A stretch of DNA of 63,634 nucleotides, the filler included, from Hausera hauseri (taxonomy: Eukaryota): NCBI GenBank assembly GCA_046269625.1. It is 12 parts of 12 records of this genome, joined end to end, with 100 filler letters (N's around TTAATTAATTAA, not from the genome) between each part and the next. Parts side by side here need not be neighbours in the genome. Positions count along the whole stretch, not along the records: positions 26,545 to 35,419 come from JBJURY010514348.1; 11 more parts are not named here. One strand, written 5' to 3'. Shown here piece after piece: positions 12,327 to 46,882 of this stretch (positions within the stretch are counted from its first letter, which is position 1; the number at the start of each line of letters is the position of its first letter). The position numbers and the translations under genes are program-made. The notes beneath the pieces are model-generated. The model ran no database searches. It was given only the letters and a program-made list of their open reading frames with translations, and was not told the DNA's origin.

Positions 12327-12426
12327 NNNNNNNNNNNNNNNNNNNNNNNNNNNNNNNNNNNNNNNNNNNNTTAATTAATTAANNNNNNNNNNNNNNNNNN
12401 NNNNNNNNNNNNNNNNNNNNNNNNNN

Positions 12427-19010: not shown

Positions 19011-19019
19011 TACGGGATC

Positions 19020-21398: not shown

Positions 21399-21989
21399 NN
21401 NNNNNNNNNNNNNNNNNNNNNNNNNNNNNNNNNNNNNNNNNNTTAATTAATTAANNNNNNNNNNNNNNNNNNNNNNNNNNNNNNNNNNNNNNNNNNNNAC
21501 AGAAATGGTGGAGATACCCATTAGGGGGTTTAACAAAGTCAAAAACAAGAAGACGTTTACATATGTACAAGGATTCATTACTTACACAAAATATTCACAT
21601 TGTTATAGTCAGATTTATTTGTACTGAACAATTTCGGATCACAAAAATGTTATTGTTAATGTTACTGCTTATTGAATCACGAATAGATGTCAGTACGTAT
21701 CATTTTTGATTCGGTTCGATTTCTCTGAATTTGGATTGAATTATTATTCCATTTTGTGGTTGGTTTATTTTTATTTAATTTGATTCGAATCAATTTAGAA
21801 ACCCTAACAGCAGCATAGTAGCACACATGGCCGTAAATACAAGATCTGAAAGTTACGTCTATCTGAATCATGACACAATACGTGGACAAAGAATGAAGCT
21901 AAGAGCACAAAAGTTTGCATATTTAAAGCACGAGTTTGTATGTGATGAACGCTAGTTGTTCATTGAGATAGTAAATTAATACTAGATCT

Positions 21990-24620: not shown

Positions 24621-25789
24621 AATAGTATCGGCGCCATCAAAATTTTAATTTGGCGCTCAGAATCGTTAGGCCGGCGTGTTCTTCCATCTTGGTTTTGATT
24701 TCGTAATTCTTGCTCGTGTAACAGTCGGAAGTCACTCCCTGAGAATCAATTAAACTGAGAATTTATGCTCTAGTTCGCCAACTTTAAAATCCGATTTTGA
24801 TGCCGTAAAATTTTCGATTACAATGCTAGAAGCTCCTAATCATAATTATAAATGAATTTACTTTGCTGCTGAAAATTTACAAAGAAATATGTTCATGTTT
24901 CCAAAAAATCATGGAAAATACTGTGAGTAGTAAGATGGTAACAAAAGTGATAAGATGTTCATTAATGAAACTTAAATTCAGGAACCACCTAGGTCTCAAC
25001 ATCATGGTGTTTCAATGAATACAGTTAGACAATCTGTGCTTGGGGACATCGCATTCTGGAATCTGGCTTTGTGTACGTGGATGGATTAGGTTTTTTCTCA
25101 CTGATACCTCATTGATTTAATTTTTTTAATTCCAACCGTAATTCTCATACGGTTTTACTTGATATGTTAACTTTTACATGGTTCAAGCATAAATGAACTG
25201 TATTATTTACGTAATATTTTATATTGACTATGCACTTTATGGCAAAATGTTCAACAATTTTCATAATAGTAAGTGGATGTTTTAATATAGTCAACCTGGT
25301 TGTTTATTGTTAATTATACACCGTGTATGCATGTGTCCGATAGATTGTAAATATCTTTCAAAGACTTCATTCTATGGTCTGTAGAAATTTTAATATAATT
25401 CCTTCTTAGTCTTAAAAAATAATTGGTATGTTTAATTACATTTGCACAGTCATTTTATCCGACATAGTTGTGTTTAAAAAATTTATTGTGAATTACACAA
25501 TTTGTTTAAATTTATTGATGTAAAAAAAACGTTGTAAAACTATGGAATGAAACGGTTTCTGGAATACATAGAAGTTATCGATCTGTTTCATTAAAACAAA
25601 ATCTTTGGCTAAATCTCGTTTGTTCTGAATTTCTTAAGTTTAAAATGGCACGATTAATGTCGGGTTTACTGCCGAAGAAACTAAGATATTTCCACTTGGT
25701 GTCGGATATCTTGATCTACCTAGATCAAGTCCGACATCCACAAACGTTGGTTTCTTGCGAGATAATATTTTTTATTATTATTTTAAAGT

Positions 25790-26203
25790 AGTGACAATGA
25801 AATGTCTTATGGGACTACACGCACGGATGTATGTGAACATCATTGCCTCATCTGTTTCGTATATTGGGGAAAAATGAAACAATCCTGTCCGGTGTGCAGA
25901 AACGAGAATAAAAGGTGTCAGTTTTCAATAGCAACGGAAAATTCTTATCAATTTTCCTCATACCGGAATTGAAAAAACATTGGCGATAACACATGCACAT
26001 TATGCATGAATGAATCGAATTCATTTGCCGTGCGCCTGGTTAGATGTTATGAATTTCACCATACCTGTGTAAACTGCATTGTTGATTTGGGACAGAATGA
26101 ATGCCCGAAATTCAGCTCAGCCAGTGACAATATTTTGATACATAATGCTGACCGAAAATCAGTCTCAGTTTCCAAAATTCGCAACTTGAAGAAAACGGGA
26201 TAG
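25790..26203 (+). pseudogene. Two tandem RING-finger domains (E3 ligase-like), degenerate
   Basis: DVCEHHCLICFVYWGKMKQSCPVCR (~25827-25900) and TCTLCMNE..RCYEFHHTCVNCIV..ECPKF (~25991-26115). Confidence 0.65.
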
Positions 26204-26544: not shown

Positions 26545-26890
26545 CGTTTGGTTAGTAAGAAACGCATTTAACTTTTCATGATCATTTTTCCATGCAAAAT
26601 AATGCACAGGATACGACTTTTCTATTTCTGGTTCTCGCATGAATGCCATGGCGGCAATGTTTACATTCGTACACTTTGCCGGACTTTTTGGTTGGTCTTG
26701 ATTGCCTGGTGATGAGGAACTAACAGACGGACTGCTATTTGCAACAGTGATTGGAAGACGTCCTTTGTCATTATTGGAAGCATATGAATTGTGAAAATCG
26801 AAATTGATAGCGTTAATTGAGTAATCGGTAATGACTGTCGAGAATGAAACTTTATTCAGGAGATGGTTTTCGCTTTTGAATTGATGACAT
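26545..26890 (-). CDS. Ankyrin-repeat protein N-terminus (ANKRD13-like), truncated by contig end
   Basis: Frame open for more than 110 codons, ending MAFMREPEIEKSYPVHYFAWKNDHEKLNAFL, resembling the ANKRD13 P-L-H-x3-W-x-N start. Confidence 0.45.
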
Positions 26891-26932
26891 ACTAAAAATG
26901 GGAATCTGATTGACAGAATAGAGTATAATAAA

Positions 26933-27081
26933 TGTTCGGACCTTCAGCTATTAGAATTTTCTTTATTTCGGCAAAGAGTAGGAATATCGGAGCCCGCCTA
27001 TGTGTCCGACGCGCCGGCAGCAGACGCCCGGCCGTGCCCAACCGAATAGGCCAGAGGGCGACGGTCGACGCGGGCACCACA
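26933..27081 (-). repeat. Candidate 3' LTR (~150 bp, TG...CA)
   Basis: Starts TGTGGTGCC directly after the PPT, as in copy A; AATAAA at 26962-26967; ends CCGAACA. No second copy in the contig. Confidence 0.5.
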
Positions 27082-30000
27082 TCACCCCCGTGGCAAAGTT
27101 AAAACTATGAAGAGTAAAAGGATAGAAAGAAAAAATCGTAAAACGAAAAGTGTTTGTGTCAGTTGAGCTTAGTGTGAATTAGACGTTGAATACCTTTGGC
27201 TTATTTTTCCGTGCTATACTTGCTGAATGTGACTCTGCGTGTTGTGTGTTTATGCGATGTGTTTATTTGCAGAGATTGAGGTTGGGGAAAAATTGGTAGA
27301 TTTTGGTGTAAATTGTGTCGTGCGAAGATGAGTCGGAATAAAGAGAAGTAGGTGATGAAAGAGGAAGAGTGATTGTTGAAGGCGGATAGTTAAAGGTGTT
27401 GAAAAGAGTGTTAGCAGACGAAGGAGTGATGACAGGTGTAGTGGAGGATAAAGGAAGAGAGAAAGAAGTTGGAGTAGAGATTGGAATTGTGCTGAGTGAA
27501 AGAGTAGACAAGGAAGATGATACAGACTGAGTGGTAGGAATAGAGGTAGAAAATGTAAGAAATGATGGAGCAAGAAAAGGCGTAGAAGAGGAATATGGAA
27601 ATGATGTAGCAATAGATATTGGGATAGCAGGGAGTGACGGAATGAGAAAAGATGTTGGCGTGTCGGTTGGTAAGGTGTCGTTTTTAAATAAAGCGGGCAT
27701 TAAATTGGTAACGTGTACTGTAAGGTCTTTGCCGACTTTAGAGATAATGGCGTTATGTGAGTGCAGCTGTATCAGTTTATAGGGCCCCAGGTACCGTGGT
27801 TGAAAACCGCAAGGAGCTTGATTCTTCAGCCATACGAATTTAGCCATGTACAAATCTTCGGGTAAGTATGTTTTGTCTTTGTGGAGTATCCTGCAGAACG
27901 AATTTTTACTGACCTCGACGAAGTGATTTTGCGCCACCAATATCGCCTCATCTGTGGGAGTGTCGTCTAGGGAGGTTAGTTCCAATAATGATCGTACAGG
28001 AGCTCCGAATAAAGCTTCAGTAGGTGAGCATCCTGTAGAAGTGGAGGGAGTGTTCCGCCAGCCAAGCAGAACAAACGGAAGAAGATTCATCCAACTAGTG
28101 TTGGACTCTGCCAGAATTCTTAGTGACATTTTCAATGTTCGGTGGAAACGTTCTAGAAGGCCATTCGATTGGGGGTGATAAGACGTAATATGCATGTGAT
28201 GAATCCCCAATCGGATAACAAGGGATTTGAACAGGTTGGATTCAAACTGTGAACTCTGGTCCGTGACGATGAAGCTAGGTGATCCAAACCTGCTAATCCA
28301 TGTACGAATGAAAACGTTAGCTATATTGTCGGTATCTGTGCTCTGCAGAGGGATGGCTTCTGGCCATAGCGAGGAACGGTCCATCATGGTGAGGATAAAT
28401 TGATGTCCGTTGTCTGGAGGAAGAGGGCTAACGATGTTGATATGAACGGACTCAAAACGCGATGTGCAGGGAAAGTGGAATAGTGGTGGTTTTAAATGCT
28501 TAGTTGTTTTGTATTTTTGGCAAGCCACACACTCCTTAACCCATACCTGCACATCGGAACGCATTGACGGCCAAAATACTTGTCGGTGGAGTAAACGAAA
28601 AGTGGCTTTAGCATCGGGGTGGTGTAGCGAATGTATATTGTGAAATGCTTGATTTTTTCAACGATGGTGCAAGAATTATTACGGAATGACCTGGTTTGGA
28701 AGTGTCTAAAGCCACGCCGTCAACAATTGTACAAGACATGAAAGAATTAAGCATGGCCTGAGGTGGCTGGTTCTGTTGAAGCTGAGGTTGCGTAAAAATC
28801 GGCGAAAAATTAATCGAACTAACCGACCTAGATAAAAAGTCGGCATCCAAATTATTAACCCCGTTAATATGTTTTATGTCGAAGTTAAATGTCGACAAGT
28901 ATGATATTTGTCGTTCTTGGCATGTGGAAGGATGTTTCATAGCCATGATGTTAAGTAAGGGTTTGTGATCGGTTTGTATAGTAAAATGACGAGCGACAAG
29001 TAGGTGGGAGAAATACTTTAGAGCAAGGACAATGGCCAACAACTCTCGATCGAACGTTGAATATCTAGTTTAAGGGGATGTTAGTTTGCGAGAGAAAAAT
29101 TCTAGCGGTTGATTTTCTTCGTGGATTTGGTGAAGCACAGCACCTACTTCAGTGGTTTAAGCGTCTGTAGTAAGAATGGGTTGCGCGTCAGGCTTGGGGA
29201 AAGCGAGAATGTCGACGGTCTTAATTCCTTCGCGTAGCTTATCAAACTTATCAACCTATTCAGGTGTTCACTGAATTGGCTGATGTTTTCACCACCGCTT
29301 AAGTGTGCAAATGGTGCTGTCAATTCAGAGCAATATGATACATTTTTACGAACAAAGTGTAATGTGCAAAGGAAACTGCGCACTTCGGTGGTCGTACGTG
29401 GTAACTGGATAATTTTAAAGGCTTCAACTCGGTCTGGTTGGGGAGAGTGGCCGTGCAGTGAAATAACGTGGCCAAAAAAGTTTATGCGTTTTTTGAAGAA
29501 ATGGCTTTTGTCAAAACTGACTTGGAGATTATGGTGGTGAAGGCGTTGGAATATTGCGCGAAGGTTTTCCTTAAGTTGTTTGGCCGAAGAGGAAGCGATC
29601 AGAATATTATCAATGTAATGGTGCGCAAACGGAAAATCTGAGAGAATTGAGTCGATATGTCGCTGGAAAGTCTGGGTGGCATTTCGCAAACCGAATGGCA
29701 TAAACAGGTACTCGTAGAGGCCAAAAGGAGTGGTGACGGCAGTCTTTTCTATGTCTTCGGGTGCGAATGGTATTTGGTGATATGCTTTGACCAATCAATG
29801 GTCGAAGAAATTGCGGTTGAATTAAGGCGATGCAAGATATCCTTGATGAGTGGCAGGGGGTACGCATCCATAATTGTCAAGTTGTTCAACTATCGGTAAT
29901 CACCGCATGGTCTAAAGGTACCCTCCTTTTTTGATCAACGTGTAAAGGTGAAGACCAAGGAGATTTGGAACGGCGTACAATGCCGGATCGTTTTAGTTCA

Positions 30001-32215
30001 AGAAATTCGGCTTCGACGGCCTGCCTACGACAAGGTGATAGTGGTCGTACCTTTTTGTGTATTGGCCGTTTAGGCTGTGTAATTATGTGATGTACAGTGC
30101 TGTTTGCAGGAGTAAACGTACGATCTTTTTTGAGTGCTCGTGAACATGATTTGTTAACGAATTGCTGTAAAGTTGTAGGCAACTGTGAGAGATTCGGTGA
30201 TGGTGATGAAACAGCTTGAGTAATAGCAGCTGCAATTTGTGAATTGTTTGGTGATGTGCAGTCAAGTGGTATTTGGTGCAATAAGGTCGAATTGAAAATG
30301 GTGTTGGATGCAGTTATTTCGTCAAGTGAATTAACGTTGGTGACAGTACCACAATTAACGACATCGAACCTCGACTGAATGTCAGTACTATGATTGAAAA
30401 ATTTTCGAAATAAAACATTGTTATGGAAATTCGAATTAGTTTTTGATTTTCTCAAAACTGATATCCGCGTGTCGATCGACTGCGCGGCAGCCGAAATGCT
30501 ATTTATATGCTCAGTAACGCTGCCAGTTATACAGCTCCTGAGACATCGTTGACTGCAGTCAATCAATAAATTATAATGTGATAGGAAATCGGACCCTAGT
30601 ATTGCCGTTTGGACGTTAGCAACTGTGAATGTCCAGTGGAAAGGTGAAGGAAATTTTGGTAAGATAAAAGATAGTTTAGTCATGCCAGAAATGTGCAGCA
30701 TTTGACCTGAAGCGGTGTATAAGGATTTAATTCTGAATGGTGAATTTTGTACAGGAAAGATTGTGGCAATAAGGAAATCGCTGCACCTGCATCAATGAGG
30801 AAATAAACGGATTGCGTTGTAGGAGCGGTGATTGCAGCCTTTAGAGTAAAGATGGCAAAAGAGGCGTGTAGGCATTCAGAAGGTGTAGTAGTGCCTTTGC
30901 CAGAGTTTGCCGTGACTTCTAGCTGAAAATTTAGTTTTGTTGAAAGGATGAACTAAGACGACTATTAGAAGAATAGGTGGCACGTCCTTTGCTCGTATCT
31001 GTTTTGAAAGTGCAGCCTAAAATGCATTTACGAGCTTGTTTTTAAACTTTGCATGGTAGATGCAAACAACGGTGTCTGAGAAAAAACCTTTATTATAAAA
31101 TTTGCATCCTAGGCAGCATTTTTGGCACTTTTGTTGAATCTGCTGTGTATTATAGCAGATTGACGACTGCGCAGGCGATGGCGGCCGGTTTCTAGATGCA
31201 GAATAGGCGACGTCAGAGACAAAATCCATTCGACGGGACAGGAAAAGTTCATTTAATTTGTTGTTAATGTTGTTAATTGTTGCGTGTAGTGCTGTATTTT
31301 GGCACGTAACTGATTTAGCTGTTGCTCTATTCATATGTTGTTGCTTTGAATACCATTAGCAGCAACTGCCACCGAAAGGATTGGTGGGTAGTTTAAGTGT
31401 AGAACGTCGTGTGTCTTGTCGGCTAATTTGGCCAGTTTCAAACGAGCGGTAAGTAGAGCCAGAATTTGGATGGGTAACGCGTTGAGGAAGTAGTGGCGCA
31501 GTAGTTCTGGGTTGTGTTCTTTAGTGACGCCGAAAGTGTGTATATGTGGCGAAGAAGTGCGTAGAAGGTTTGACAGTCGTTGTGTGCCTATAGCATTGTC
31601 GTGAAAGAAGCGTTGTATGATCGTATCCATTGAGGGTTCTGTGATTTCAAGAACAGCGTTGAAGAGTTGTGAATATGGATCAGGGAGTTCGAAGATTTCA
31701 ATAATGTTGTGAATTCATGTTTTGATATTGTTAGGTAGTAAGACGAGGAGGTTATGTGCTTTAGCTAAGGAATCGGTAACATTATTGGCTTGTAGTCACA
31801 GTTGGTGGAATTGCAACCAAGTTTTGCTGGAGCCTTGGTTGTCGATAAAGAATTCAGTGCAGTGAGGGAAAGGAGCGGAAGAGGTGGTAGGCGAAGGGTT
31901 ATTAGCAGAAGTAGAAGTGGGTTTTTGAAGCAGTATAACAGATTTTGGTTTCGTGGTGGTTTTATCCGTGGTGCCTATGGTTGGCGACGAATTCGTGCCA
32001 CCACGGATGCGGAAGTGTATATGGAGGTGGATATAAGTTGAAGTAAATTGTAGGGTTTCAGGGATAGGTACTGTAGAGCCATTGTATGTGATGTAAAATT
32101 CAGATGAACGAAGAATAGTGCACATGGCGTTGTAGAAATCTGTAGTGTTTACGTGTGTTGGTGCAATAGTGTAAATATGTTTGTTATTTAAAAAAGGAAG
32201 AGCGAAAACAATGTG
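26933..32215 (-). mobile_element. Near full-length CsRn1-like Gypsy (copy C): Ubl-Gag (2x CHCC)-PR-RT-RH-IN-PPT-short LTR
   Basis: Ubl ending HFRIRGG at 31997; Gag 31996-30990; protease FLIDAGA ~30790; RT (SKSPWSSPLH, MPFGLRNATQTFQR, YIDN); RH; integrase ORF 27263-28564; PPT GGGGG at 27085-27089. Confidence 0.93.
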
Positions 32216-32376
32216 GATGTATAGCCAGGTGCGTGTCGCAGGGCGCCAGCGAACGATGCCGTCCGACTTAATGGCATAGGCTGAGCGGCCGGGACTTCAG
32301 CTTAGCCGTAGCGGATCCCAAACTTCTGTGTGACCGTGTTCCGTGCATGCAATGTTTCTTCATCAGTATTTTTATT

Positions 32377-34050
32377 TTACACATATTTTGCAATATTGCC
32401 CATATTAGAACCATTTCTCAGATTATCCAGAATTGGTTCTTTAAATGAGACTGAATCGGCCCTTTTACATTCACAGTGAATGTAAGAATATCTCTTATAT
32501 TTCACGTAATATTCCTCAGTCTCGGTCTCCTTATTTTCTGTAGGATAGGGTAAATCAGATTCACTAACAACAAGAGTGCCAAGGATTTTGGGAATAATTT
32601 TTCTACCGCTATTCAGATTGGGGCGGAAATCGAATCGAGATTTTTATTACTGCTGCTTGATGACGAATCATCCATTAACTCCGCGTCTGCGTTAATATCT
32701 TTTACACGTTTTTTAACCTTATTTTTTCGGGGTCTTGTTTCGAATGTTTTGGCATCAAATAGGGATTGGTCAGCAGTCGATGGATGTGCAGTATGCTGGA
32801 TAAAATATTTAATTTCATATTTACAAATTGGACAATATGGCATTGTATTTGCTTGGGATCGAGCTCGATCTACACAATATAGACATAGCATGCGTAGGCA
32901 AGGCGTAAGTCTGTACACTACATTGAGAATTACTCGGCATTCCATACATTCTGAGAGATCTGAAAATAAGTAGAATTAATTGAGATTTAATTCAATTGTA
33001 TTAAGATCTATACAATTATTATTGTCTTCAATATACGGTGAGGTCGACAGATAGTTATACAGTCTAAGTAGGTGAGCTTGTACTAATTGTGAAGTACACG
33101 TAGGAATGATAGTGGTATATAGTAATTGCTCACTTAAACGAATTATGAGTATGGGGTTTGTCGAGAAGTTTGCAGCAATAGGTTGACGGCTAAGATTGAA
33201 GAAGCCATTGGTATTACTAATAGGCAGCTTATAGAGCATAAGAGTAGATCTAGTTGTGTTGTTTTAATGAATCTATACTTTAGTATATCTTGTATGAGGG
33301 GTAAGAAGTCTTCATTTTCGATTTTATTTAGGGTACGTTTGTCGGTTATGCATGTAAAGGGTGTTCTCCAGTCGATGACTTTATGCCTGGGGTACATTTG
33401 TTTCTGTAATAAAATTTCACCTTTATAGTCTAGTATAGCGATATCAATGATGGTTTGCTTAATAGTTGTAGGATTAGATTGAGTTGTGACGTAATTATAG
33501 GATACGAAGATGAATAGGAGTTCTAAATCTGATAAAGATAACCCTTCTGGTGCTGAAATGTACTCATTTACTGGTAAAAGTGGCTTGGGTGTATGTACTG
33601 ATTGGATATAGTCTTCATTGTGGGTGTATATACGTTTTGGATGAATTACTTCCACAGCGTATATACAGTTGGTTAGAGAAGAAATGGTAAAAGATAATAA
33701 TTCCACAGGAGGAATAATGATAATCACGCTAGAGTTATCAAGTAGGTCGTGATTAATATCAAAAATTGGATCATTATAGTTAATACTGATAGTCAGCTTG
33801 CCACTGGTGAGATGAATAGCAATGATATCGACCTTTCATGGTCGGTCGATAAGGACCAATTGGAATAATTAATTGTTTACGTCGGTTAACGTTTGTTGAA
33901 TACACATTTGTCTGGGATAGAGTTGGAGTTTCTCAGACTTTAGGTTATTCGGAATAGCTGTTTGATTAGGGAAAATGCGATACAATTGATTTACCCTCAA
34001 GTAAGACGCCAGTGCTTCATAAAAAGTTTGTGATTCAATATAGGACTCCA
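32377..34050 (-). pseudogene. Multidomain accessory ORF: unknown N-domain, catalytically dead DEDDh exonuclease (REX4/ISG20-like), RING finger, CHD-type chromodomain
   Basis: ORFs 33869-34147 and 33143-33727 share one frame; 32976-33239 and 32613-32945 share the next. Motifs IDIAILDYKGEILLQKQMYPRHKVIDWRTPFTCIT; CMEC..PCLRMLCLYC..CPIC; IIPKILG..EEYYVKYKRYSYIHCE (32467-32598). Confidence 0.7.
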
Positions 34051-34298
34051 TTTTCAGCTTTAATACGAAACATAATGATAAAAGTTTATTTACATGAATT
34101 GAATGTAAATTACACAAAACAATAGCATGCACTACTATATTAAGCATGAATTATATACAATGGTCATAAGATACAGAATGTCAATAGTTATTTGAGATAG
34201 GGAATGTCAGTGACAAGATAACAATAATATACAGAATTAAATAGTCATATCAGAATATATACACACGTATAGAAAGTTAATAAAATGTCTAAAAATGT

Positions 34299-35419
34299 TT
34301 ACACCACGATTTCTCGGCGCACAGTAGCTAATAGGCGTTCATGTTCGAAGGAGCTGATCAATAAGTCACGTATCAGAATGTCACTGATTGTTAGGTTTCG
34401 ATAATTGTGAGTCTCTGGATGAATATCTGGTCGTCGCATCAGGATGGAAACTGATCCATAGGTTCGAGTCAAAAGCACAGTTATAAGGGGAGTCTTCTCA
34501 CATGAACCATGAGCATAGGTTACGTCAAATCGGTAAGTTCCGTTATCGAATTTCTTATTTAGGAAGGTTTCCAATAGGAGAAATTGTTTGAATACTTTTG
34601 CGTGATGTAATGGTGTACTACGTAATTGTGGTTGGAAAATGGCTTGAAATACTTTGTTATCGTAGGCATAATCGAATATCTGTATTGCAAGGTTATGTCG
34701 ACCATGGCGTATAACGAGTAATAAGGGAATATCCCCATCTACGTTAGGTATGTGTAAAGGTGCTTTTGTTTAAATGAGCATGAGTATAAAAAAAATCATG
34801 ATATTCACTCATAATGGCTAAATGAATGATGGTATTGCCATTTGAATCTTGGAATTTTAGCGTTTCCTCTGCTTCATCGCCTAATTGAGTTATAGCTTCT
34901 TTAGCTCTTTCTTCGCTTCTTGATGCTACTGCTAGCATTAATGGAGTTGTTTCAGCGGTATTTACTGTTGTATAGTCTATTGGGTCAGCTGGTAATTGTT
35001 GCTATAATAAGTATGACGCTGATTGGTACTACTATGACGATTAGCATAAATAAATTATAATTTATTTGAAATTGTGGTATTGTTTGAACTGACAGTGATA
35101 TGATACTCAGCGTTTCATTGCCTTTGGGAGAATTGGTAGATATTTTAATCATAAATTTTCCTTTTTTCATTATTTTATTGAGTGTTGGTAATTTAAATTG
35201 AATTTACTCCCCTTTTGGGCGTAGTGACTTCTAATAACGCGATCGTTTTTGGTTTTTGTAATAGGTCATAATAAGGTAACTGAATATTGGCTAAATAAGG
35301 ATAACCAGATATCAATTTTGTGCATTCAACGTACGTACTGGTAACTAGACAACAGCCGTCGTTAGTATTTTTCAATATAACGATAAAGTCAGGATTTGGC
35401 AAGCTAAACATTACAAGGT
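34299..35419 (-). pseudogene. Receptor-like protein: FN3-like ectodomain, TM helix, ankyrin repeats
   Basis: TM LFMLIVIVVPISVILIIATI; ankyrin ETTPLMLAV, NGNTIIHLAI, DGDIPLLLVI, KTPLITVL. The FN3-like motif CTKLISGYPYLANI is weak. Confidence 0.55.
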
Positions 35420-35688
35420 NNNNNNNNNNNNNNNNNNNNNNNNNNNNNNNNNNNNNNNNNNNNTTAATTAATTAANNNNNNNNNNNNNNNNNNNNNNNNN
35501 NNNNNNNNNNNNNNNNNNNTAGAAGAATGATTTTCGACAGATATAAAAATCCAATAATAATAATGATAGTATTATTATACACCGAAAAAATAAATCAAGT
35601 CTGTAAATTCAAACGTTCAGAGGAAATTTATATAAGGTGTGAGGCAATTAAAAAGGTGCATATTTCACATTTATACATTTTCTGTTTT

Positions 35689-36171
35689 TTACACATAATT
35701 ATAAGATGGTGAACTATCATCTCCTTTTGAGATAATCGGCAGCTGAGTTACTTGATAATCAGATGGAATAGTACTTTTCTCATAAGAACCGTCTACCGCA
35801 TATGCAGCTGCTTGCACTGCTACAACGTTCTGGTTCTCATATGACTGATTCAGAGTTTTTTGTCGACGTTTAATACCAGTTCTTTCCGAACAAATGCATC
35901 CAAGACACAAAAGAATCAAAACTACAATTATCATCACAATTGTGACACATCCAATAATTCCACCAATTATCCCAGCAATGGGATAATTGAAAAGATAGCA
36001 AACTTTTCTAAGGCTAAGTTTGCAACGATTGCAGCAAAACTGATTATCTGGATTGGTTTTGTATGCACAACAGTAGTTCGGACAGGTTTTGTAAGGGTAC
36101 GTTGTGCACTGTTCCTTACCGTAAGTTTCCCAAAACCATACAAACATCAGTACCATTGATACGATTACCAT
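35689..36171 (-). CDS. Small Cys-rich single-pass membrane protein (Shisa/CYYR1/VOPP1-like architecture)
   Basis: Signal peptide, CPNYCC..FCC ectodomain, TM IAGIIGGIIGCVTIVMIIVVLILLCLGCIC, C-terminal SPSY; intact 160 codons. Confidence 0.65.
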   Translation of the reverse strand: MVIVSMVLMFVWFWETYGKEQCTTYPYKTCPNYCCAYKTNPDNQFCCNRCKLSLRKVCYLFNYPIAGIIGGIIGCVTIVMIIVVLILLCLGCICSERTGIKRRQKTLNQSYENQNVVAVQAAAYAVDGSYEKSTIPSDYQVTQLPIISKGDDSSPSYNYV

Positions 36172-36404
36172 TCGTTTATTCTGTGATGAAAAGTGAGTAA
36201 TTAATTATAGGCCTTTGTTTTCAATGCAATTGGCAAGGTCATTCTACCAATTGTACAGCGTGTTACTTTGTAGCCATTTACTTGACTGTTTACGTGGTTT
36301 TTGTTCAGCTGCTGAACGACTTTTGAACAACTAGCAATTTTATTTTGCTCTAAGTTGAAAGCCATTATGAATAAAAACTCAGACTGTGCCACAGGATTCT
36401 CTAG

Positions 36405-36671
36405 CAGTGGTTCCCAAAGTTAGGGTCAGGACCCACAGTGGGGTCCTAAAACATCAATGTGGGGTCCTGAAAAAATGACAACTAAGAACATTTTTTTCTT
36501 CTGTTTTTACAAAATAAGATTAGTTTACTTAAAATGGACAAAAATAATGTAAGAATTAATGTTACTTTGATCTTGATAATTTGACTTGAAAACAACCAAC
36601 AACAGCTGGGGGCACAGGTCTTTGCTTCTGTTTTTTTGAGGGTCAAAAGCTGAAAATTTTGAGAACCACTG
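36405..36671. mobile_element. hAT/Charlie-type MITE, teleost-like
   Basis: TIRs CAGTGGTTCCCAAA ... TTTGAGAACCACTG. Confidence 0.75.
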
Positions 36672-37059
36672 CTAAAGCATATACCCGCCGCCCCCCTTTT
36701 TTCTCCTTAAGTCCATAATGAACATAATGTTAAATCAAAAATATTAATATTAATGTTGAAAACTTTTGAATTAACTGACTAGACTACTTGTTTCAGCCAA
36801 GATCATCTTTATTCTAGGCTACATGCATCTGCTACAGTATGTCCTGCTGGAATGTGATGTGATGTGTGTCATACAGGTGTGATGGAGTGAGTTCAATCCA
36901 ACAGGATGTCAGAATGGTTTATATTTACACTTCCCATCAAACCACAATCAGATTCATTCTATCCAAGGGCTCCATGTATCTGGATAGATTTCTATTTTTT
37001 TTTTTTTTGAACAATGAAAAGATAAAAACAAGTCATAGTTAAATAGAAATTAAATACTT

Positions 37060-37230
37060 TTTGCATTTTTAAAAAGTAAAGAGTAGAAAGTAGAGATAAT
37101 TGAATTAAATTGTAAGAAGTAGAAGTAAAAAGTAGGCTGAAAAATAATTACTCCACTAAAGTATAAATAACCAAAATTTCTACTTAAGTAAAGTAACAAA
37201 GTATTTGTACTTAGTTACTTGACACCTCTG
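37060..37230. repeat. Teleost-type AAGTA-rich DNA-transposon end
   Basis: AAGTAAAAGTAGAAGTA-type array ending GTACTTAGTTACTTGACACCTCTG. Confidence 0.5.
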
Positions 37231-39407
37231 CTGGCAACTAATGTACATTCTTCACTTATACTTCCATATGTATCATGTTGTGTGGAAGTGTGGGGTTCCA
37301 CATACAAAACAACAATAAATGATATAGTTCTTTTACAAAAATGAACCATATGTGTTATTAATAAGTCTGGTTACTATGAACATACAAGTCCACTGTTTAT
37401 TACATCTGGTATCATGAAATTCTAGGACTTGGTTCACTACAAAATAATGCAACTAATGTATAAAGCAAAATCAGGTGTGTTGCCTGTTGGGGGGCAAAGA
37501 TTTTTTTTATATTATATGAATCTTGGTATGATCTGTGACATGGTATTAAATTTATAAAATGACATGCTAAAAAAGGAATAAAAAGGTCTTTTTCTAATTA
37601 AATTGTGGAATGATGCAAGCATGAACTTATGAGAATGTAGTTCATTATGGGTTCTCAAAAAAATTCTAAAAAAATATATGTTTGATGATTATATGGGGTA
37701 GTTAAGTTTAATTGGTATAAATAATAACAGGTATAAATATGAGCCTTGTGCTTCCGCCTGCACCTTTTCAGTCAAACTGTTTACATTTTTGTAATGTTTG
37801 ATTTGTTGCTGAACAATTTGATCAATGACTGAATAAATAATAATCAATCAAATCAATCTATAAAGGTAATTATTTAATATGTCTCCTGCTGATTTTTATC
37901 AGAATACCACAGATGTATATTTTGGTATGTTTTGGTCATATTAAGATATTTTCAGCCTAAAAATCCCAACATTAACTACTTTAATGCTCCACTCAAATAC
38001 AGAATATTGCTAATGTGGGTGACTTTACTCAGATGAAATAAACAGTCCTAGAAACATGTTTGTGCAAGTTAAAGAACATCTTGATCAACAATAACTCCAA
38101 GGTTTCCCCACACTATTACTCGAGTCCAAGGTAACACAGCATCCAGAGCAAAGTGCTTTCAGTCTCTAGGGGAGAGTGCCAGACAGCGTGTCCATTATCA
38201 GGGATTAATGGATAACTGTTTTCTCTTTGCTGTCCATTAATGCCAGATTACAGACACCTCAGAGGACATTATCACGAGTATACAGATAAATATAGTTCTT
38301 AAAGAACCATATCTCAGCTTGGAGGTAGGTGGAGGGTTTCCTCCTTCTCTCCCCCCTTTGCCCAACTGGCCCAATTTGGATGGTTTTATTTTTACAACTA
38401 AAGAAATTTATTCATGTATTTATTTATTTAATTTCATATATTTTAAAATATTTACAGATTTTATTCATTTTATTTCTGTGGACTATAGTTTTGTGTTCAT
38501 TTTGTACTTTTTCCCTTTTCCTGATTTTTCCTATCGATTCCCACTGTTATTATTATGTAGTTATTTTCTATGTTTGTTTTCCTGTTTGTGTTGCTTGTCA
38601 GAGTTTGACACTTACCTGTTCCTCTTTTGTCAAACAGCATATACTCCCTGTATATCAGCTGTTACTCAGTCGCCGTGTGTGATCACCTGTTTTGGTGGGT
38701 GCTCTGTCTGTTCGGGGTTTTTCCCTTCTCTTGTGCTGTTAGTTTTTTCACAATAAACCCCAGGACCTGGAAATGTTTCGACTCACATCCTGACTTTGTG
38801 AAAGACCCACTGTGGCTTTGCTTCATGAGCTGTAGGGAACAACAAAAAAAGAAAGAAAAGAGAGAAAACATGAGGGTTCTTTAGAGAGTGAGTTCAGGGG
38901 TTGAGGGAACCCTGCTGTGTCACCTAACCTCAAATGCTGCTTTAGGCAGTGCAAGACCCCTTGAGTCATTGTGCTGTTTTAGGAAATGGTGCCATTATAA
39001 TCACCACTGTCTGGAATGGGGAAGGAATAAGAGGATGTAGAGGCCAAATAAAAACAACTAGCTGACCTTGATGGAGCTCATTAGCATAAATCAACCCTGT
39101 TGACTGTATGAACTATGTTGGTGGGGATGGTGACTGAATGTTTACTGCAGCTCTGTGTGCAATTTATATGCTTTATAAACCAGAAGGAGCTAAATTTCAA
39201 AGTGTAATTTATAGTTTCTGATAAGAATTTTTCCACACTGAAAAACCCATCAGCTGTAGAAGAGCATATCTTTCAGGTCACGTTTCTTTTTTAATTTCTC
39301 ATACTTTTTCATTAGGCACTTTTTAAAATCACACAAAAAGTACCACTGTCAAAACATGAGCATACAGCAACAAACAGGGATCCAACCAGCAGAGCTTGAC
39401 TAAAAGT

Positions 39408-39734
39408 TGTGAGGTTGTGGTGGAATGACCCTGAGCGCAGGCAAACTCCAAAAATAAACGGTTTATTAAACAAAAGAAGGCTGTCGTGGCAGCAAAACTC
39501 TAAATCTCAGGGAACAAGGAGTACAACCACACTGACTGATGAGACAGTACAATGATCCGACGCAGACTGAGGACAAGACACCAAAGATAAAGGGCAACTA
39601 ATTAGGGACAATGAACACCTGGGGAAGACACAAGAGGAATCAGGTGAGTATGGGCGGGGCTGGAGCAGGGCCGAGATACACAGGGGAACACAGAAACACC
39701 AGAAAACAGAGAAAAAAGAACACAGACCATGACA
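39408..39734 (-). mobile_element. Solo LTR with 5-bp target-site duplication
   Basis: Minus strand TGTCATGG...CCTCACA with AATAAA near its 3' end; flanked by AAAGT at 39403-39407 and 39735-39739. Confidence 0.85.
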
Positions 39735-40292
39735 AAAGTGGGCGGAACACCAAATTTAACATAGCCTGTACTATGCTTTATTAAAAAAACAGAAGTAGTT
39801 TTATGCTGAACCTGGTGTTCATATCTGTGTCTGTCAAAGTCTACAGCTTCTCACTCACCAAACAACAGCTGCAGAAACCTACAGGATGAAGAAGGTTTTC
39901 TGAAAATAAAACATCATTTTTAATACCTTTAAAAAATTAATATGAAAACAAAAATATGTGCATAGCAAGTTAAGAATCCTTGAATTTACAATGAAAAATG
40001 AGAAAAGTTGAAACCTCTTACATGAAATAATTTAGATCATTTTTATAGATTTTTTTCTGCCAAACAACTTTCAGGCCTAGTTTTTTGATGAATGTTATAA
40101 ACTCCAAATTCTAAAGGATTATGTATGGTGGTTTGTGGGGTTGGAAAAGTATTTGCTGGACATTAGATCACAGATATGCAAGTGGTGGTCTGTAAAGTGT
40201 TTTTTAAAGTTTTTTTTGGTGAGGTAGACTATCTGTTCTCAAAATTTCAAGGCAAACCTTTGGGTTTAGTCTGGTTAGTACGGAGCCCACCA

Positions 40293-41798
40293 AGGGTCAG
40301 GGGGAGAAAAAAAAAACAGCCGGTGGAAATCTGTGCGCTCGGATTACTAAACCGTGCGCACAGATTACAAAACTGTGCGAACAGATTACTAAACCGTGCA
40401 CACAGATTACTAAACCGTGCGAACAGATTACTAAACCGTGCGCACAGATTACTAAACCGTGCGCACGGATTACTAAACCGTGCGCACGGATTACTAAACT
40501 GTGCGCTCAGATTATTAAACCGTGCGCACAGATTGTTGACATCTGGAGAAGTTAGATGGTAACCATGGGTGTTTGTGGGAACTGTGTTGTTCATCAGCTC
40601 AGAAGTGCGTAATGGAGCGGTTTTTGTTCACTGAAGTCAAAATACAGCACAAAAAGGGTTTGAATTTGAGTATGTTCTACAGTTTTTGCCCCTCTGTCAG
40701 ACAGTTTTGGAACAGGGTCCCCTCCGATCGGATCATCACAGGAAGCCGCTCCGAGCCTTTCGGAGTCCGTGGTAACCGGACTCCGGACTTTGTTTCCCGG
40801 CAACGAGGAAGTTTTGCTAATGTTATCAATTTGTCTTCTCAGGCTTATATCACAAAATGACTGAATAACTTCATTTGGAACTTTTAGGAAATGTTTATTA
40901 CTCTTTCAAAAATGTTTATTGCACCACAGAGAACAGTTGAATAAAGTTTGAAACATTTCAGAGAACAAGGCTCCTGTTATTCTGCAGACGAAGCGCCACA
41001 CGGGGACATTTCTCAGCAGCATGCCGCTCGGAGGTGTTCTCCAGCGGTTCTCAGATGTTTATTCTATTTCATAAACAACAGATGGGGGGACGGGAGGGCG
41101 GAGGAGGCTAACATCGGTTGCAGGAATCATTTGCCTGTAAAATATGAAATGAAATAAATCACCACCTCAGATTTTGATAAAACTTTCAGGGAAATTCTGT
41201 GGCCAATAACATCAATTTAATGGACTGGCAAGGGAAAAATGATCAAGTAAATGATCGACATTTTAAAAGTTTTATATCAGTGTAACAGCCTAAATATAGT
41301 CATATGGTCATATTGTATAGTGTGCTGATGAAAGCAGTGCTTTAAGTTTCTATATGACAACAGATCCACTGAATTTACCTTGCTGGTGCGCGCGCCGCAC
41401 CATGATCCAACCTCTCGACAGATCAAAGCAATCTGCGCTCCTGGATTGCTGCAACTGAGAGCACGGTTTAGTAATCTGTCCGCACGGTTTAGTAATCTGT
41501 GCGCACGGTTTAGTAATCTGTGCGCATGGTTTAGTAATCTGTTTGCACAGTTTAGTAATCTGTGCGCACGGTTTAGTAATCTGTGCGCACAGTTTAGTAA
41601 TCTGTGCACACGGTTTAGTAATCTGTGCGCACAGTTTAGTAATCTGTCCGCACGGTTTAGTAATCTGTGCGCACGGTTTAGTAATCTGTGCGCATGGTTT
41701 AGTAATTCATGCACACGGGTTTTAGAAACTGAGGGCACGGTTTATTAATCCGTTTGCACAGATGTCAACGGGCTGATTTTTTTTTCACCCGCTGACTC
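40293..41798. mobile_element. Non-autonomous foldback-type DNA transposon; long TIRs built of 21-bp tandem repeats
   Basis: (CCGTGCGCACAGATTACTAAA)n at ~40330-40535 and inverted at ~41460-41760; outer ends AGGGTCAGGGGGAGAAAA and, on the reverse complement, AGAGTCAGCGGGTGAAAA. Confidence 0.85.
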
Positions 41799-42077
41799 TT
41801 CTGTACAATCCTGAATCAGATTGACTCCAAATATATTCAGCTGTGTATGCATATTGAATGATCAGTCCAGCGGTTCATATGATATTTTGCTAACAGACCG
41901 ACCAAGTGATTTTAATAGTACTTATAAAAGGTTTAGAAATATTCAATGTGACATATTAGGACTCAGAATATATGATGAGGATGACTAATTTTATTTCAAT
42001 ATCTGGAGATTCCTTTTTAGCAACGATTTATGTTGACTAACAATATTTTTTTTGATGAACGGAAACTGAAACTCCAG

Positions 42078-42336
42078 AAACGCTGAAGACTACAAAAGAT
42101 CTAGATATAACCTGTGTAGATCTATAAGACAGGCTAAGAGACAATACAGGCTAAAGCTGGAGCGCTACTACACCACCGCAGACCCCCGGGATATATGGCA
42201 AGGACTGCAGCACATCACCAACTACCAACAGAGGAACAGGGTAGTAACAACCATCCACTCTACAATACCTGATGAACCAGAATCAGTTTTATGCTCGCTT
42301 CAAGGCCCTCAACCCTGGCCAACTGAAAGAAGTTGC
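42078..42336 (+). mobile_element. Rex1/Babar LINE ORF2 fragment
   Basis: RYNLCRSIRQAKRQYRLKLE..DPRDIWQGLQHITNY..PDE..NQFYARF. Confidence 0.85.
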
Positions 42337-42789
42337 NNNNNNNNNNNNNNNNNNNNNNNNNNNNNNNNNNNNNNNNNNNNTTAATTAATTAANNNNNNNN
42401 NNNNNNNNNNNNNNNNNNNNNNNNNNNNNNNNNNNNCGTTTATTTACGGTGCTATATTCTCCCGCTGAAGCATTAAGCAAACACACAGAAGTCTGTGTCT
42501 TTCATCATCTGAGCGAAACTATTCTCTCCTTGTTGCAATTAGCTTGTTTTCAAACGGAAAAGAAAAGCAAGATCAAGCAGGAGACCCAACAGACGAGCTG
42601 TGCATGGCGTGCAGCAATTATGCTCAACTTTCAAGAATAGTCTGTGTATCATTTATGCTATCACAACAAAGAGAAACATTTTTACTTTCAATCTTCTCAA
42701 ACCACTCTTGCATATTTATAATGCCATCTCCCACGTCTTACATTTGGCTTCTTTTTTATCTCGCCCTAAAACATGAATATTCAAAGCAG

Positions 42790-42990
42790 CTGGAGAAAAA
42801 GTCCAAAAAAATCACTAACAGAACATCATTTACAAACGATCAAATTTTATTACTTGAAAAAGAATTCGAAAGAACTCACTATCCTGATGTATTTTATCAA
42901 TAAAAATTATCTCCAAAGCTAAAAGTTATAGAAACACGAATCCAAGTTTGGTTTTCGAACTGGAGAGCAAAATGGGGAAGAGAAGAAACA
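42790..42990 (+). pseudogene. Pax6: Pax6-type homeobox, intronless, with premature stop
   Basis: [56 protein letters not shown]; Ser50; stop at 42901-42903. Confidence 0.85.
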
Positions 42991-43197: not shown

Positions 43198-44400
43198 TCA
43201 GTTAAAGAATGTGCAACCTGTAACGCAGTTCTGTGCTTTAGAATTGAATTTATTTTGGTAAATTCAGATAATATAGGATCTTTTGAAATGGGGAGCATAA
43301 AATCTGCAACCTAAGCAGCATATAGTCGAGTTGTTTTTGAATTTGGTGTGGTAGTAACACACCAATGATCGTGTAGGTGACCTTGCATGCCTTGAATTTT
43401 GAGACAAAGTGCTGCTATGGTTCTCATCAAAACGATTTCGTCTAGGCATGGTCAAAGCTTCGATTTTTGACGTGGGTGCAGAAATTGCTTGATATATGTT
43501 GGCGTTTTTGGAACGTAAAGAATTAGCTATATCGCTAGCTTGTTGAGTTGTTGGTGCTTGTAACATAGCGGCTACTAATGGGGCCGTATGTGCATGTAAT
43601 ATCTGTGGCTTTTGTCAGCCAATTGTGCTAGTTTTTGTAGTGATCATGTGCACTCTACTATGGTTAGCAGCGCACGTATGTCTCTGGGTAAAGACAGCAG
43701 AAAATATCTGCGTAGTAAATCGGCGTTGTTTGCTTGATTAACGCCTAGAGTACTCAATTGAGTTAATGAGGTCTAAAGAAATTCTGAGGGTTTCAATGTG
43801 CCTATGGTGTTGTCATTAAAATATTTGTGGATAATGTTATCCAGAGATGGTTCCGTGATTTTCAAAATTGAGCTAAAAAGTGTTTCATATGGGTCACTGC
43901 TTTGGAAAATTTCCGATAAGTTGGGAAGCTGCGACTTAATGTTGGAAGGCAGAAGTATAAGCAAGCTGTTTGCTTTAAGAAACGAGTCGACAATATTATT
44001 TGATTTCAACCAAGCCGCATGAAAGTCCAACCACGTCCGGCTAGAGTGTTCCTTGTAGACGAAGTATTCTACTCAAGGTAGATTTACAGTAGACGACGGA
44101 GGTAGAGGTGAATTTAACGGTACACTTTTAGTAGGAATATCGGCAAAGTCCTGTTGGTCGTTAGATGAGGCTTTTGGATCAGATTCACCTGGCAGACGGT
44201 AGTGTACGGTGAGTATAGGTGTTGAAGATGAGTGGGTGTAACTTGTTAGTGTCGGATTGTCGGAGAAAACTTCCATTATAACTAAGGCGGAAATTAGCGA
44301 GGGTTGTTTGTCGTTGTAACACATCAGACACTGTTGCAATTGTTGTTGATTTGTGTATGTAGTAGGTCTGTGTATGCTTGTTTCGAATAAAAAGACAAGT
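43198..44400 (-). mobile_element. Ubiquitin-like domain-Gag fusion (copy D), pol absent
   Basis: CLFIRNKHTQTYYIHKSTTIATV..FRLSYNGSFL, frameshift, then ILTVHYRLPGE (GGT GAA at 44184-44189); Gag SSRTWLDFHAAWLKSN; two CHCC knuckles. Confidence 0.85.
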
Positions 44401-44798
44401 GGGACAAAATTGCCACATAAGTGGGTGTGCAGTGTGGTGCATAAGACAGCGGCGCGCCCAAAATCCCTGCGATGTAACAGTCGATTTGCGCGACCTGAGT
44501 GGTAAACACTAGAAAAGGCGTCCTGTTTGGTTGATGTTTGACGTCTGTTTCCTGTAAACTTTGTAAATGTCTTTCCATAAATTCCTTCTGCATCGACTCA
44601 GCCAGCATGTCTCCAACCGACGATGTAGTACTGGGATGTTTACCACTGGCATTAAGGTAATTCTGGAGAAATTGTGAACTGTTCTCAAAATAAAAGGCAA
44701 TCAATTCTTCGGATAAAATTATGTTAATAATTTAGTAGATTCATTAACATATGTATAAGAAATATGAAAAATTCACTGACCTTTTTTATGTATACCTT

Positions 44799-45560
44799 TT
44801 AATCATCTGAGACTCCAATGATAGACTCCGATAACGGTTGACATAATAATGCATGGTAATTGATGAAATCAGAAAAATCATCCCACAATAAGAACGTTGT
44901 ACTGACGGCGCTTTTATAGACTATTTGAATAAGTTTTTGTAGGTGGAGATTATCGAGATACGGATGTAGAAATGAGAATAGATCACAAAGTAATTGCTTG
45001 TAGAACTCCTGTGTGTATTCCATTGTTATATTATAGAGCATTTTGGAAATGAACTATCGATGGGAAATGAGTTCTAATCATGAGAATACGAATGATGGAG
45101 CACATTTTAGTCTGATGACATTACAGTTATTTGAAAATGCAGTCAGAGCATGATATTGGAACTCTACCATTTGTTCTTCATCATCAAGATGCTGTCTATG
45201 ACATTTATAAATGAGACTACATACTAACATTGCATAAACATCAATTTCCAGATATCCGGCACTACGATTTACTATGAGTAATGATTTCAATTGTTTATGT
45301 GCTCGATCAAGAACGTACATTGATACTAATCGTAGGAATCTCACAAAGACCTCATCATTATGGGTAAGTTGATGTTGCGTCATAGTGTTGACAACATTTT
45401 GTACGGCAACATTTCGTTGATTACTTGAGAAATTACTCTCCATTCATAGACGCAACATAATTTCGGCCTCCTCTGCCATTGATGGTGGCTCATCAAATCC
45501 CCGTGACGAACTAATTCCATTGTACAAATAAATTGATGACGGCGATCTCTTCGGACAACG
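44799..45560 (-). pseudogene. CNOT1: CCR4-NOT subunit 1 C-terminal domain fragment with internal deletion
   Basis: Three same-frame ORFs: FDEPPSMAEEAEIMLRL*, DEVFVRFLRL, ALTAFSN..CAPSFVFS*LELISHR*FISKML, YKQLLCDLFSFLHPYL..DFSDFINYH. These match CNOT1 DPPGLREKAEYLLREW, APGFVYAWLELISHR and QLLIDLFKYLAPFL. Confidence 0.85.
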
Positions 45561-45600
45561 ATTACATAAATGCGTTGGAGCATTTATTCGACAAAGCATA

Positions 45601-46882
45601 CTCCAGAGTATTTTTAATAAGATGCTCAAGAGCCTCGTGATTTCTGTGATTAAAATGTGCCAACATCTCATTAACTGCTCCTGAAACAGTGTCGCATTTC
45701 CTTTATTTTCTTTTTAGAATGACTACCGTGGTTTCCTGCGTGAAGTTTTGAATGTTGTGAAGAGTTTGTTTAATAGGGAGAGCATTAGGAGTTTCTGTCT
45801 TTTCCTCAGCTTCCTCAAATGCATCGTCAGGATTCATGATTTCATCCTCTTCGCCACACATATTTATTAGTTCATTCACGGATTTTTCGACATTATGTGA
45901 TTTTGTCTGGAGTATTTTTGCAGTCTTGATACACAGTTCCTGAGTGCGATCTACGAATTCATCAACTGCCACCGGGATATAATTGGGCAATTCTCATAAT
46001 TGCACATTACTAAGGTCTTCAAGAACCAAACCAATACGATACGTTCTGAGATCCCTGACGCGATCAAGGAGTAATTCCATTTTCGTCAGACCTGCATACA
46101 CAGAATTTGTGTATTCTTGTAATTTCGTGCTTGTCCAGTTATTCGTAGTAAGACCCGGCTTGATTATTCTTTTCAGTTTGTTCATCTTCAGTACCATAAG
46201 TGTTTCGTATTCGGGTGGAATGCTATTGATCACATATTTGATATGGTCCACCATTAACGTCAATTTATTGTGAAAATCTTTTAATGCTGTCTGTTTAAGT
46301 TTCAGATTTATGGCTGCAGGGGAAATATCCATATTTAGTTTAATCATAAGATCTGTCTCTCTGGCCAGCGTTAAAATATCGGGATCAAATATGACAAAAA
46401 GTTATTTTGTCTCCGGATGACGCACGATCAAAGATGACTTAAGACCGGCATGAGTTGCATTTACTTGACGGACCCAAGCTTCATGGTATACAAGCTCAAA
46501 CGTCATTAATGTTTCCGCAAGTTTGTTGTAGTTCTTTACAATTAATCGACCTTCCGTGATTTGCAACATTGCTGAATGTTCTCGATTGAATAATTTCATT
46601 GGTTCTTCAATACATCTAAACAAATGTCGTACCCATGCAATTTTGCCGGCGATTGGTGGATCATCTTTCTGTCGTGTATAATGTTTCATTAACGAATCAA
46701 GGTCACGTTTGTAATGGTTCATTATCTTCATATATTTATCTTCAATTCCCAGATCTGGTATATTTAGCTTTTCAAACCATCTCAACATCTGAAGAGCTCG
46801 TGTTGTGTTGTTTACCCGATCAAATATTCCATCCATAAACGCTATAATGCTATTATGAATGTCTTGAATCTGTCGAGTAAAA
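45601..46882 (-). pseudogene. DNAH5: Axonemal outer-arm dynein heavy chain (DNAH5/DNAH8-type) tail fragment
   Basis: Same-frame ORFs with 3 stops: FEKLNIPDLGIEDKY, PPIAGKIAWVRHLF, YNKLAETLMTFELVYHEAW, VRHPET, PGLTTNNWTS, LLDRVRDL, HFNHRNHEAL..NTLE. About 7 aa are deleted between two PP motifs. Confidence 0.88.

Follow-up and report, generated by a model that had tools for sequence, protein, structure and literature searches.

Probable accessory genes and captured host fragments upstream of a ubiquitin-like domain and Gag in a decayed Gypsy element of Hausera hauseri

The stretch of DNA analysed here, hereafter the window, comprises 63,634 nucleotides of the Hausera hauseri assembly GCA_046269625.1 and is made of short contigs joined via N spacers; the feature under study is located in the contig at positions 26545-35419. 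In minus-strand order this contig carries an open reading frame (ORF) fragment, an ankyrin ORF, an exonuclease-like ORF, a RING finger, a chromodomain piece, a leader, a ubiquitin-like domain (Ubl) with Gag, pol, a polypurine tract (PPT) and the head of a long terminal repeat (LTR). We consider it somewhat probable that this is the 5' zone of a decayed CsRn1-like Gypsy element, in which separate accessory ORFs and a captured host piece stand ahead of a Ubl acting as a spacer before Gag. The original prediction had instead described one reading path encoding a fused, RNA-binding and chromatin-targeted E3 ligase, paired with the element's own Ubl.

Five Ubl-Gag copies were compared, namely the four present in the window and the intact protein P0004, which was found among 8,000 scored candidates. 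Host-like pieces were found upstream in four of the five, each of them different. In P0004 (900 amino acids, aa) a CARM1 fragment (E 4e-80) is fused in frame to Ubl-Gag, and in copy 2 (11186-12324, plus strand, placed by tblastx and alignments) a WD40 fragment is in frame with the Ubl. Upstream of copy 3 (43267-44450, minus strand, with its Gly-Gly altered) a decayed piece of DNAH5 and, after it, one of CNOT1 occupy 44802-46881 on the minus strand, both in sense. The alignment of the DNAH5 fragment is unbroken (E 2e-89, residues 540-900) and contains two in-frame stops, and the CNOT1 fragment matches Pfam Not1 (E 3e-9); these two and the CARM1 and WD40 fragments are called intronless, as judged by unbroken alignment to homologs. 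The axonemal dynein sequence points to an animal-like eukaryote as the host. The main copy has the chromodomain piece, while no recognisable host cargo was found upstream of copy 4 (53820-55035, plus strand), the Ubl of which is 5'-truncated. All five cargo pieces, the chromodomain included, have the orientation of the element (binomial p 0.03). Two further sequences lie near these copies, a mariner transposase fragment at 52044-52373, upstream of copy 4, and a homeobox start (E 2e-5) at 42469-42900, opposite the truncated copy 3.

These neighbours might also be host genes, either ordinary or dead, or short contigs joined in error, lying beside element insertions with no capture involved. We regard this as improbable. 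It would agree with the window being a chain of short unplaced contigs, with the finding that no placed contig covers the whole stretch, and with the end of the chromodomain piece at a GT that, by eye, is a possible host intron donor. However, it does not account for CARM1 and WD40 being in frame with Ubl-Gag, for the DNAH5 and CNOT1 fragments being adjacent, truncated and intronless with all pieces in sense, nor for the exonuclease, ankyrin and RING sequences, each listed site of which is represented by dozens of variant contigs.

The Ubl of the main copy (31997-32221, minus strand) ends in Gly-Gly and is in frame with Gag. With profile A8, built on the copies, 17 of 18 matches in the PDB were ubiquitin, SDE2 or eS30, these matches being driven by the tail and weak in their per-domain scores, and in the Atlas ubiquitin clusters were reached at 0.79-0.81, which is taken as a lead only. 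The Ubl gave no Pfam match, and a single Ubl sequence gave nothing relevant among PDB sequences. The C-terminal Gly-Gly is present in four of the five Ubl copies. By analogy with the captured ubiquitin that is cut ahead of pestivirus NS3, cleavage of the Ubl, likely by deubiquitinases of the host, would free Gag from fused cargo, and the domain may be better read as a cleavable spacer ahead of Gag than as the partner of an E3 ligase.

The element itself is best read, from its motifs, as a member of a CsRn1-like Ty3/Gypsy family. Its decayed Gag (31020-31996, minus strand) matches DUF7041 (E 0.011) and is 39% identical to P0004 over 281 columns. The Gag signature CX2HX9CX3C occurs twice in P0004 and once in copy 3, and is not intact in the main copy; the CHCC knuckle is accordingly duplicated in P0004 (residues 832-880), and traces of two knuckles are visible in the main copy at 31020-31355. 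The decayed pol (27266-30900, minus strand) comprises a protease region, reverse transcriptase (RT), RNase H, integrase and an S/T/P-rich tail; RVT_1 (E 1e-20), Integrase_H2C2 (E 1e-13) and rve (E 4e-7) were found by Pfam, whereas the protease and RNase H motifs were identified by eye. No match to env was obtained in the window element. The PPT (27089-27085) is followed by a conserved LTR head with a TG start at 27081 (together 26935-27089, minus strand).

The exonuclease-like ORF (32976-34051, minus strand, about 357 aa) is decayed: it starts with an ATG at 34051, is interrupted by two in-frame stops and, near 33250, by a frameshift, and ends with a stop of its own at 32978-32976. Homologs of its longest open part, retrieved from 205 candidates, are three unnamed proteins of 349-357 aa (56-67% identical), and P0001 covers the window sequence over its full length in tblastn at 68% and 62% identity. 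All three intact homologs span the interval from the ATG to this stop, and their last residue coincides with that of the window copy. As the stop residue is common to the three, the exonuclease-like ORF is, on this comparison, a gene of its own and not fused to the RING, and the single reading path does not hold, being broken by this stop and again by a frameshift that parts the RING from the chromodomain. A profile search of the family in 1.84 billion representatives returned 26 proteins at E<=0.001; Pfam RNase_T was matched (E<=0.01) in 18 of the 24 proteins scanned, and no RING or chromodomain match was found in the scanned homologs (P0018 was outside the scan).

A single fused pseudo-exonuclease-RING-chromodomain protein, working with the Ubl as a chromatin-targeted E3 ligase, is thus a very unlikely product. 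The domain order and strand fit it, the RING is one frameshift away from the chromodomain, and stop readthrough or splicing might join the parts. Nevertheless, besides the conserved stop and the scanned homologs, the chromodomain is incomplete and its cover is poor, its position is filled by other host fragments elsewhere, and no homolog of the RING was found at 65-209 aa, the size range to which the search was confined, longer fusions lying outside it.

The fold of the exonuclease was assessed on an AlphaFold2 (AF2) model of P0001 built from 22 sequences (pLDDT 78); an earlier model from three sequences (pLDDT 37.7) was too poor and was discarded. Residues 178-344 of the model superpose on ISG20 with Z 18.8 and a root mean square deviation (rmsd) of 2.7 over 158 aligned residues, and ISG20L2 is matched by Foldseek at E 7.5e-10. 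The C-terminal half is therefore, as modelled, an ISG20/REX4-like DEDDh domain of DnaQ-like fold, as had been proposed from the sequence. An N-terminal cupin barrel, which like the upstream ankyrin ORF was absent from the original prediction, is formed by residues ~5-139 (Z 9.2-9.5, rmsd ~3, 91-100 aligned, Foldseek E 1.1e-5). The metal site of cupins is HxH..E..H; by eye, alignment A6 shows one conserved His ahead of a Gly and no HxH. An AlkB-like identity of this domain was rejected, since plain cupins score better and no catalytic motif was seen.

None of the five catalytic residues D-E-D-H-D is kept in P0001-P0003, and the window copy has the same ExoI and ExoII residues as these proteins. 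The register of ExoI is ambiguous, as MAFFT, which agrees with the register read originally, and HMMER against PolC, which falls one residue later, differ; the position is non-acidic in both, and the claim that the catalytic motifs are replaced stands. Of the 22 proteins aligned, 13 have all five residues, including two REX4-like ones that lack a cupin, and nine do not. The exonuclease-like ORF is hence predicted to be catalytically dead. Its C>G skew is 0.31, against 0.19-0.25 in pol, which bears out the strong coding-strand skew noted before.

Downstream of this ORF lies a RING-HC finger in a separate multi-copy ORF (32780-32960, minus strand). Seven of the eight C3HC4 ligands are present in this copy, and other copies differ from it at the altered ligand. 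The Pfam RING models reach E 0.015-0.048, the best of them being zf-C3HC4_3 at E 0.015, below the cut-off, and the assignment as a RING finger is a probable one. The first ATG comes only after the first cysteine. The 16 bases past the exonuclease stop (32960-32975, minus strand) form a pyrimidine tract followed by AG, a putative splice acceptor that comes second when the 119 YAG/AAG sites are ranked by their number of pyrimidines and is retained in a divergent contig end of the run X2 (described below), and we infer that the RING may be reached by splicing at this site. Two sense RING-like fragments (Pfam E 0.002 and 0.067) also occur at 25787-26200, 1.2-1.6 kb past the LTR head of another copy, and may be further cargo.

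Upstream of the exonuclease the ankyrin-repeat accessory ORF (34299-35001, minus strand) has a frameshift near 34750 and matches Pfam Ank_2 at E 7e-5, below the cut-off. It is preceded by the 3' fragment of a multi-copy ORF cut by the contig end (35196-35417, minus strand), which has no credible Pfam or NCBIfam match and is represented by 15-58 X1 contigs at the listed variant sites in 35062-35350. Contigs of two public runs were placed on the window at 80% likeness, 28,994 from X1 and 1,306 from X2, and their depth was summed over window bins, a measure that does not equal copy number. In X1 the exonuclease and ankyrin ORFs have a summed depth of 3,548-14,366, the RING bin one of 6,799 and Ubl-gag one of 2,251-5,408; the ankyrin ORF has the highest value of the 5' zone in both runs. 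Among the 40 of 1,544 rows of variant sites that were listed, 78-83 X1 contigs cover each of three RING sites and 15-89 those in the exonuclease, in qualitative agreement with the depths. One X1 contig, 98% alike over 34997-35306, departs from the window at 34997, where the ankyrin ORF starts, hinting that accessory ORFs are possibly exchanged as modules. Another fuses an LTR-head variant (27057) directly to the 5' ORF fragment (35303), likely through a nested insertion.

The chromodomain piece (32467-32760, minus strand) consists of a basic/acidic linker and a partial chromodomain, frameshifted with respect to the RING frame, and it may be CHD6-9-like; a literature search for its motif returned nothing. 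The motif reported before is indeed present at 32535-32473, but a complete domain is not: Pfam Chromo is matched at E 0.002, below the cut-off, over 20 of 53 profile positions, and no match was obtained among PDB sequences at E<=10. The piece shows no C>G skew (-0.03). Its summed depth over 32465-32760 is 79 in X1 and 0.7 in X2, against thousands (X1) and tens to hundreds (X2) in the flanking ORFs; over 32169-32464 the X1 value is 342, and X2 has the same dip. Given this poor cover next to the heavy cover of the RING, the piece is no regular companion of the RING. It is likely a captured fragment of a host gene.

With three homologs, dozens of X1 variant contigs per listed site and the context of locus L001, the exonuclease and RING are, as the original prediction had held, accessory sequence of mobile elements and not a single-copy host gene. 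P0014, a catalytically dead member of the exonuclease family and the only one whose DNA context was examined, is encoded directly behind a Gypsy polyprotein of 3184 aa in L001, and on this one context the family appears associated with retroelements. That locus (380-11758) is an intact Burro-like giant Gypsy, with the dead cupin-exonuclease ORF behind its polyprotein and an acceptor-like tract near 10080; the polyprotein carries Gag knuckles, a UBX/Ubl-like domain, a mononegavirus-type fusion domain (E 1e-90), protease, RT, RNase H and integrase (PR-RT-RH-IN) and a transmembrane tail. In scans for related loci, no confirmed relative was found in viral contigs (searched with the exonuclease alignments, P0004 and RT), in metagenome contigs (A2) or in prokaryote genomes. 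A DNA-virus origin of the accessory set was rejected, its viral structure matches being only generic exonucleases and cupins.

The C:G composition at fourfold sites agrees between the accessory set and the Ubl-Gag family. The C:G ratio is 64:31 in the accessory ORFs and 209:120 in the family (p 0.54), and differs from that of the other Gypsy family of the window (51:58, p 0.005) and from that of host-like ORFs (69:91, p 0.0003). When all four bases are considered, only the exonuclease, taken by itself, agrees with the Ubl-Gag family (p 0.53), and it departs from the other Gypsy (p 0.004).

A number of observations nevertheless weigh against the element-borne reading. The whole accessory set differs from the Ubl-Gag family in its four-base composition, being more A-rich (chi2 p 0.004), and in L001 the exonuclease is richer in C than in G (26:9) while the pol is not (63:76). 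The linkage to Ubl-Gag that had been sought in other copies is met in one of the five only: upstream of the other four, which are divergent subfamilies, no ankyrin, exonuclease or main-copy RING was found, and no joint of RING to Ubl was seen among the 15 of 108 contig joints listed. The cover of the accessory ORFs exceeds that of the Ubl-gag bins by ~2-17x in X2 and ~1-6x in X1, and in L001 the exonuclease gene lies 3' of pol. As to capture, a six-frame scan of 88 frames gave a match in 6 of 51 sense and 1 of 37 antisense frames (p 0.23), a test that reaches p 0.04 without the antisense mariner transposase match. The Ubl fold is backed by weak matches only. A PBS-like match (primer binding site, PBS) to the 18-mer preceding the L001 ATG, which we take to be a tRNA-Trp PBS, is significant in one of three copies, and not in the main copy (60 of 100 shuffles as good) nor in copy 3. 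Finally, paired LTRs and target-site duplications are out of view, because the contig ends on both sides, at 26545 and 35419.

Part of this would be expected if the ankyrin, cupin-exonuclease and RING set were the accessory region at the 3' end of another Gypsy family, captured into or inserted beside one Ubl-Gag copy, in which case the capture zone would still be real. We consider such an origin rather unlikely. It is in line with the exonuclease lying 3' of pol in L001, with the four copies that lack the set in their visible upstream sequence, with the X2 cover of the set being higher than that of gag, and with the abundance of A at the fourfold sites of the ankyrin and RING, which the other Gypsy of the window shows as well. 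It is at odds with the exonuclease composition given above, with an X1 cover of the exonuclease similar to that of gag, with the lack of a PPT or LTR after the RING, and with the 5' ORF fragment, which has no similarity to L001 or to the window contig 1-5461. The order seen in L001 can also be reconciled with the main copy under the element-borne reading, as a set placed in the U3 region of the LTR would equally follow pol on the RNA, and there is no LTR between the RING and the Ubl.

The leader of the main copy (32222-32379, minus strand) starts with an AATAAA at 32376 and continues with a GC-rich stretch that resembles the leader of copy 2 (alignment p 0.005), where the PBS-like site is found. 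No LTR head was detected just ahead of the Ubl in any of the four window copies (best p 0.09), and the GC-rich 170 bp before the Ubl were not supported as a short diverged 5' LTR (p 0.09). In the contig 5562-12326 a PPT/LTR head at 8170 is followed by 3.0 kb of fragments up to a PBS-like site at 11186, which ranks first of 79 TGG sites and was reached by none of 100 shuffles; the WD40 frame of copy 2 passes through this site into the Ubl. This sister structure (8170-11185, plus strand), running from a PPT/LTR head to the PBS-like site of the next element, is a candidate for a shared long LTR. Past the LTR head of the main copy (26545-26934, minus strand) the sequence has no Pfam match and its start is, we assume, ANKRD13-like; the cover drops to a summed depth of 143 and yet 12 X1 contigs persist at 26718, as expected for more cargo. 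No internal direct repeat was found in the contig 26545-35419, so that a cargo-bearing LTR, if present, would be longer than 3.6 kb. The 5' zone of the element is probably such a multi-kilobase cargo-bearing LTR. The window yielded no tRNA genes.

If the element-borne reading is correct, host mRNA would be captured through template switching during reverse transcription, and a cut after the Gly-Gly would yield one Gag N-terminus regardless of the upstream fusion, this constancy being what would allow the slot to tolerate cargo. The accessory ORFs may be expressed from spliced RNAs and, if in U3, would lie behind pol on the genomic RNA. The dead exonuclease might be retained as a shield or decoy that binds RNA ends, while the RING might be kept as an E3, either on its own or in spliced form; the two would probably be directed against host restriction. 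More tentatively, and with considerable doubt, these elements can be pictured as multi-kilobase LTR gene cassettes, with a U3 carrying selected, spliced counter-defence genes (ankyrin, RING and cupin-pseudo-ISG20) and a slot on the PBS side that swaps host mRNA fragments, the N-terminal fusions of which would be released by a cleavable ubiquitin, making the element a natural high-copy vector for exon shuffling.

Other parts of the window are of a different nature. The contig 35520-42336 has a CpG observed/expected ratio of 0.5, against 0.75-1.2 in the other contigs, which suggests that the window may mix two organisms. A second, A-rich Gypsy family occupies 1-5461, with an RT 43% identical to that of L001 and 31% to that of the main element, and with membrane-protein-like ORFs behind its integrase. 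Pieces in 17400-21400, of which two frames were scanned without a Pfam match, are presumably similar to a Polinton/adintovirus polymerase and capsid. At 14067-16835 there is a 923-aa low-complexity ORF with an internal repeat of 258 nt and no Pfam match.

The capture of sense mRNA mosaics by LTR-mediated retroposition is established in animals (Tan et al. 2016, PMC5131818). As in the retrocopies of that work, to judge from its accessible part, host mRNA pieces are found here in LTR elements, with multi-gene mosaics, a sense bias and in-frame reading. There, however, the cargo lies amid discontinuous pieces of the element, whereas in the window element pol is kept and the cargo stands 5' of Ubl-Gag and varies by copy. 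The planarian Burro giant Gypsy, as far as the available part of its description goes (PMC6431247), shares an accessory ORF placed upstream, besides RING, ankyrin and Ubi/SUMO-like domains. In Burro, Gag comes first in a polyprotein of ~4,900 aa and env lies ahead of pol. The window element differs in having its Ubl ahead of Gag, a Gag of CHCC type and separate accessory ORFs, and env was not detected in it. The Burro layout, a giant polyprotein that begins with Gag and has env placed between gag and pol, is that of L001 but not of the window element. With the CsRn1 clade (PwRn1, AgCR; PMC2582038) the Ubl-Gag family shares the Gag CX2HX9CX3C and the PR-RT-RH-IN order, while the accessible portion of that account makes no mention of an N-terminal Ubl, cargo or accessory ORFs, and the signature is doubled in P0004.

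An exonuclease-fold accessory ORF, common to unrelated retroelements, is also known in the bdelloid LTR elements Juno and Vesta, according to the part of PMC5408684 at hand. Their ORF3 is RNase D-like, of DEDDy type and with intact invariant residues, whereas the window ORF is an ISG20-like DEDDh fused to a cupin and without a catalytic residue. Maelstrom and EXD1, host silencing/RNA factors treated in the same excerpt (PMC5408684), retain a dead DEDD fold for RNA binding, and Exuperantia (5l80) is a structural match to the P0001 model (Z 10.6); compared with the three, the window protein is element-borne, fused to a cupin and closest to ISG20. In pestiviruses a captured ubiquitin before NS3 is a processing signal for host hydrolases that gives an authentic N-terminus (PMC8310069, in its accessible part). 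Those insertions involve an RNA virus, a near-identical ubiquitin and sporadic strains, while here a diverged Ubl is kept across a retrotransposon family and its cleavage is putative. A term search of PMC13524379 met with neither exonuclease, ubiquitin, ankyrin nor cupin. In the literature searched, which left out most subscription papers and repeat databases, no description of the cupin-exonuclease accessory family and nothing relevant on Ubl-Gag was found.

With respect to the systems compared, the new features are thus a family of cupin-DEDDh accessory proteins in which dead members occur beside intact ones, and a slot bounded by a Ubl with cargo that differs between copies. Capture of host genes by LTR elements has so far been known as scattered accidents. 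A permanent cleavable Ubl between the cargo slot and Gag, if true, would lower the cost of capture to the element and open a route for mass domain shuffling. Moreover, the reason for which exonuclease folds are carried by retroelements, not settled for the bdelloid elements in the accessible part of PMC5408684, could be tested directly on the cupin-DEDDh family.

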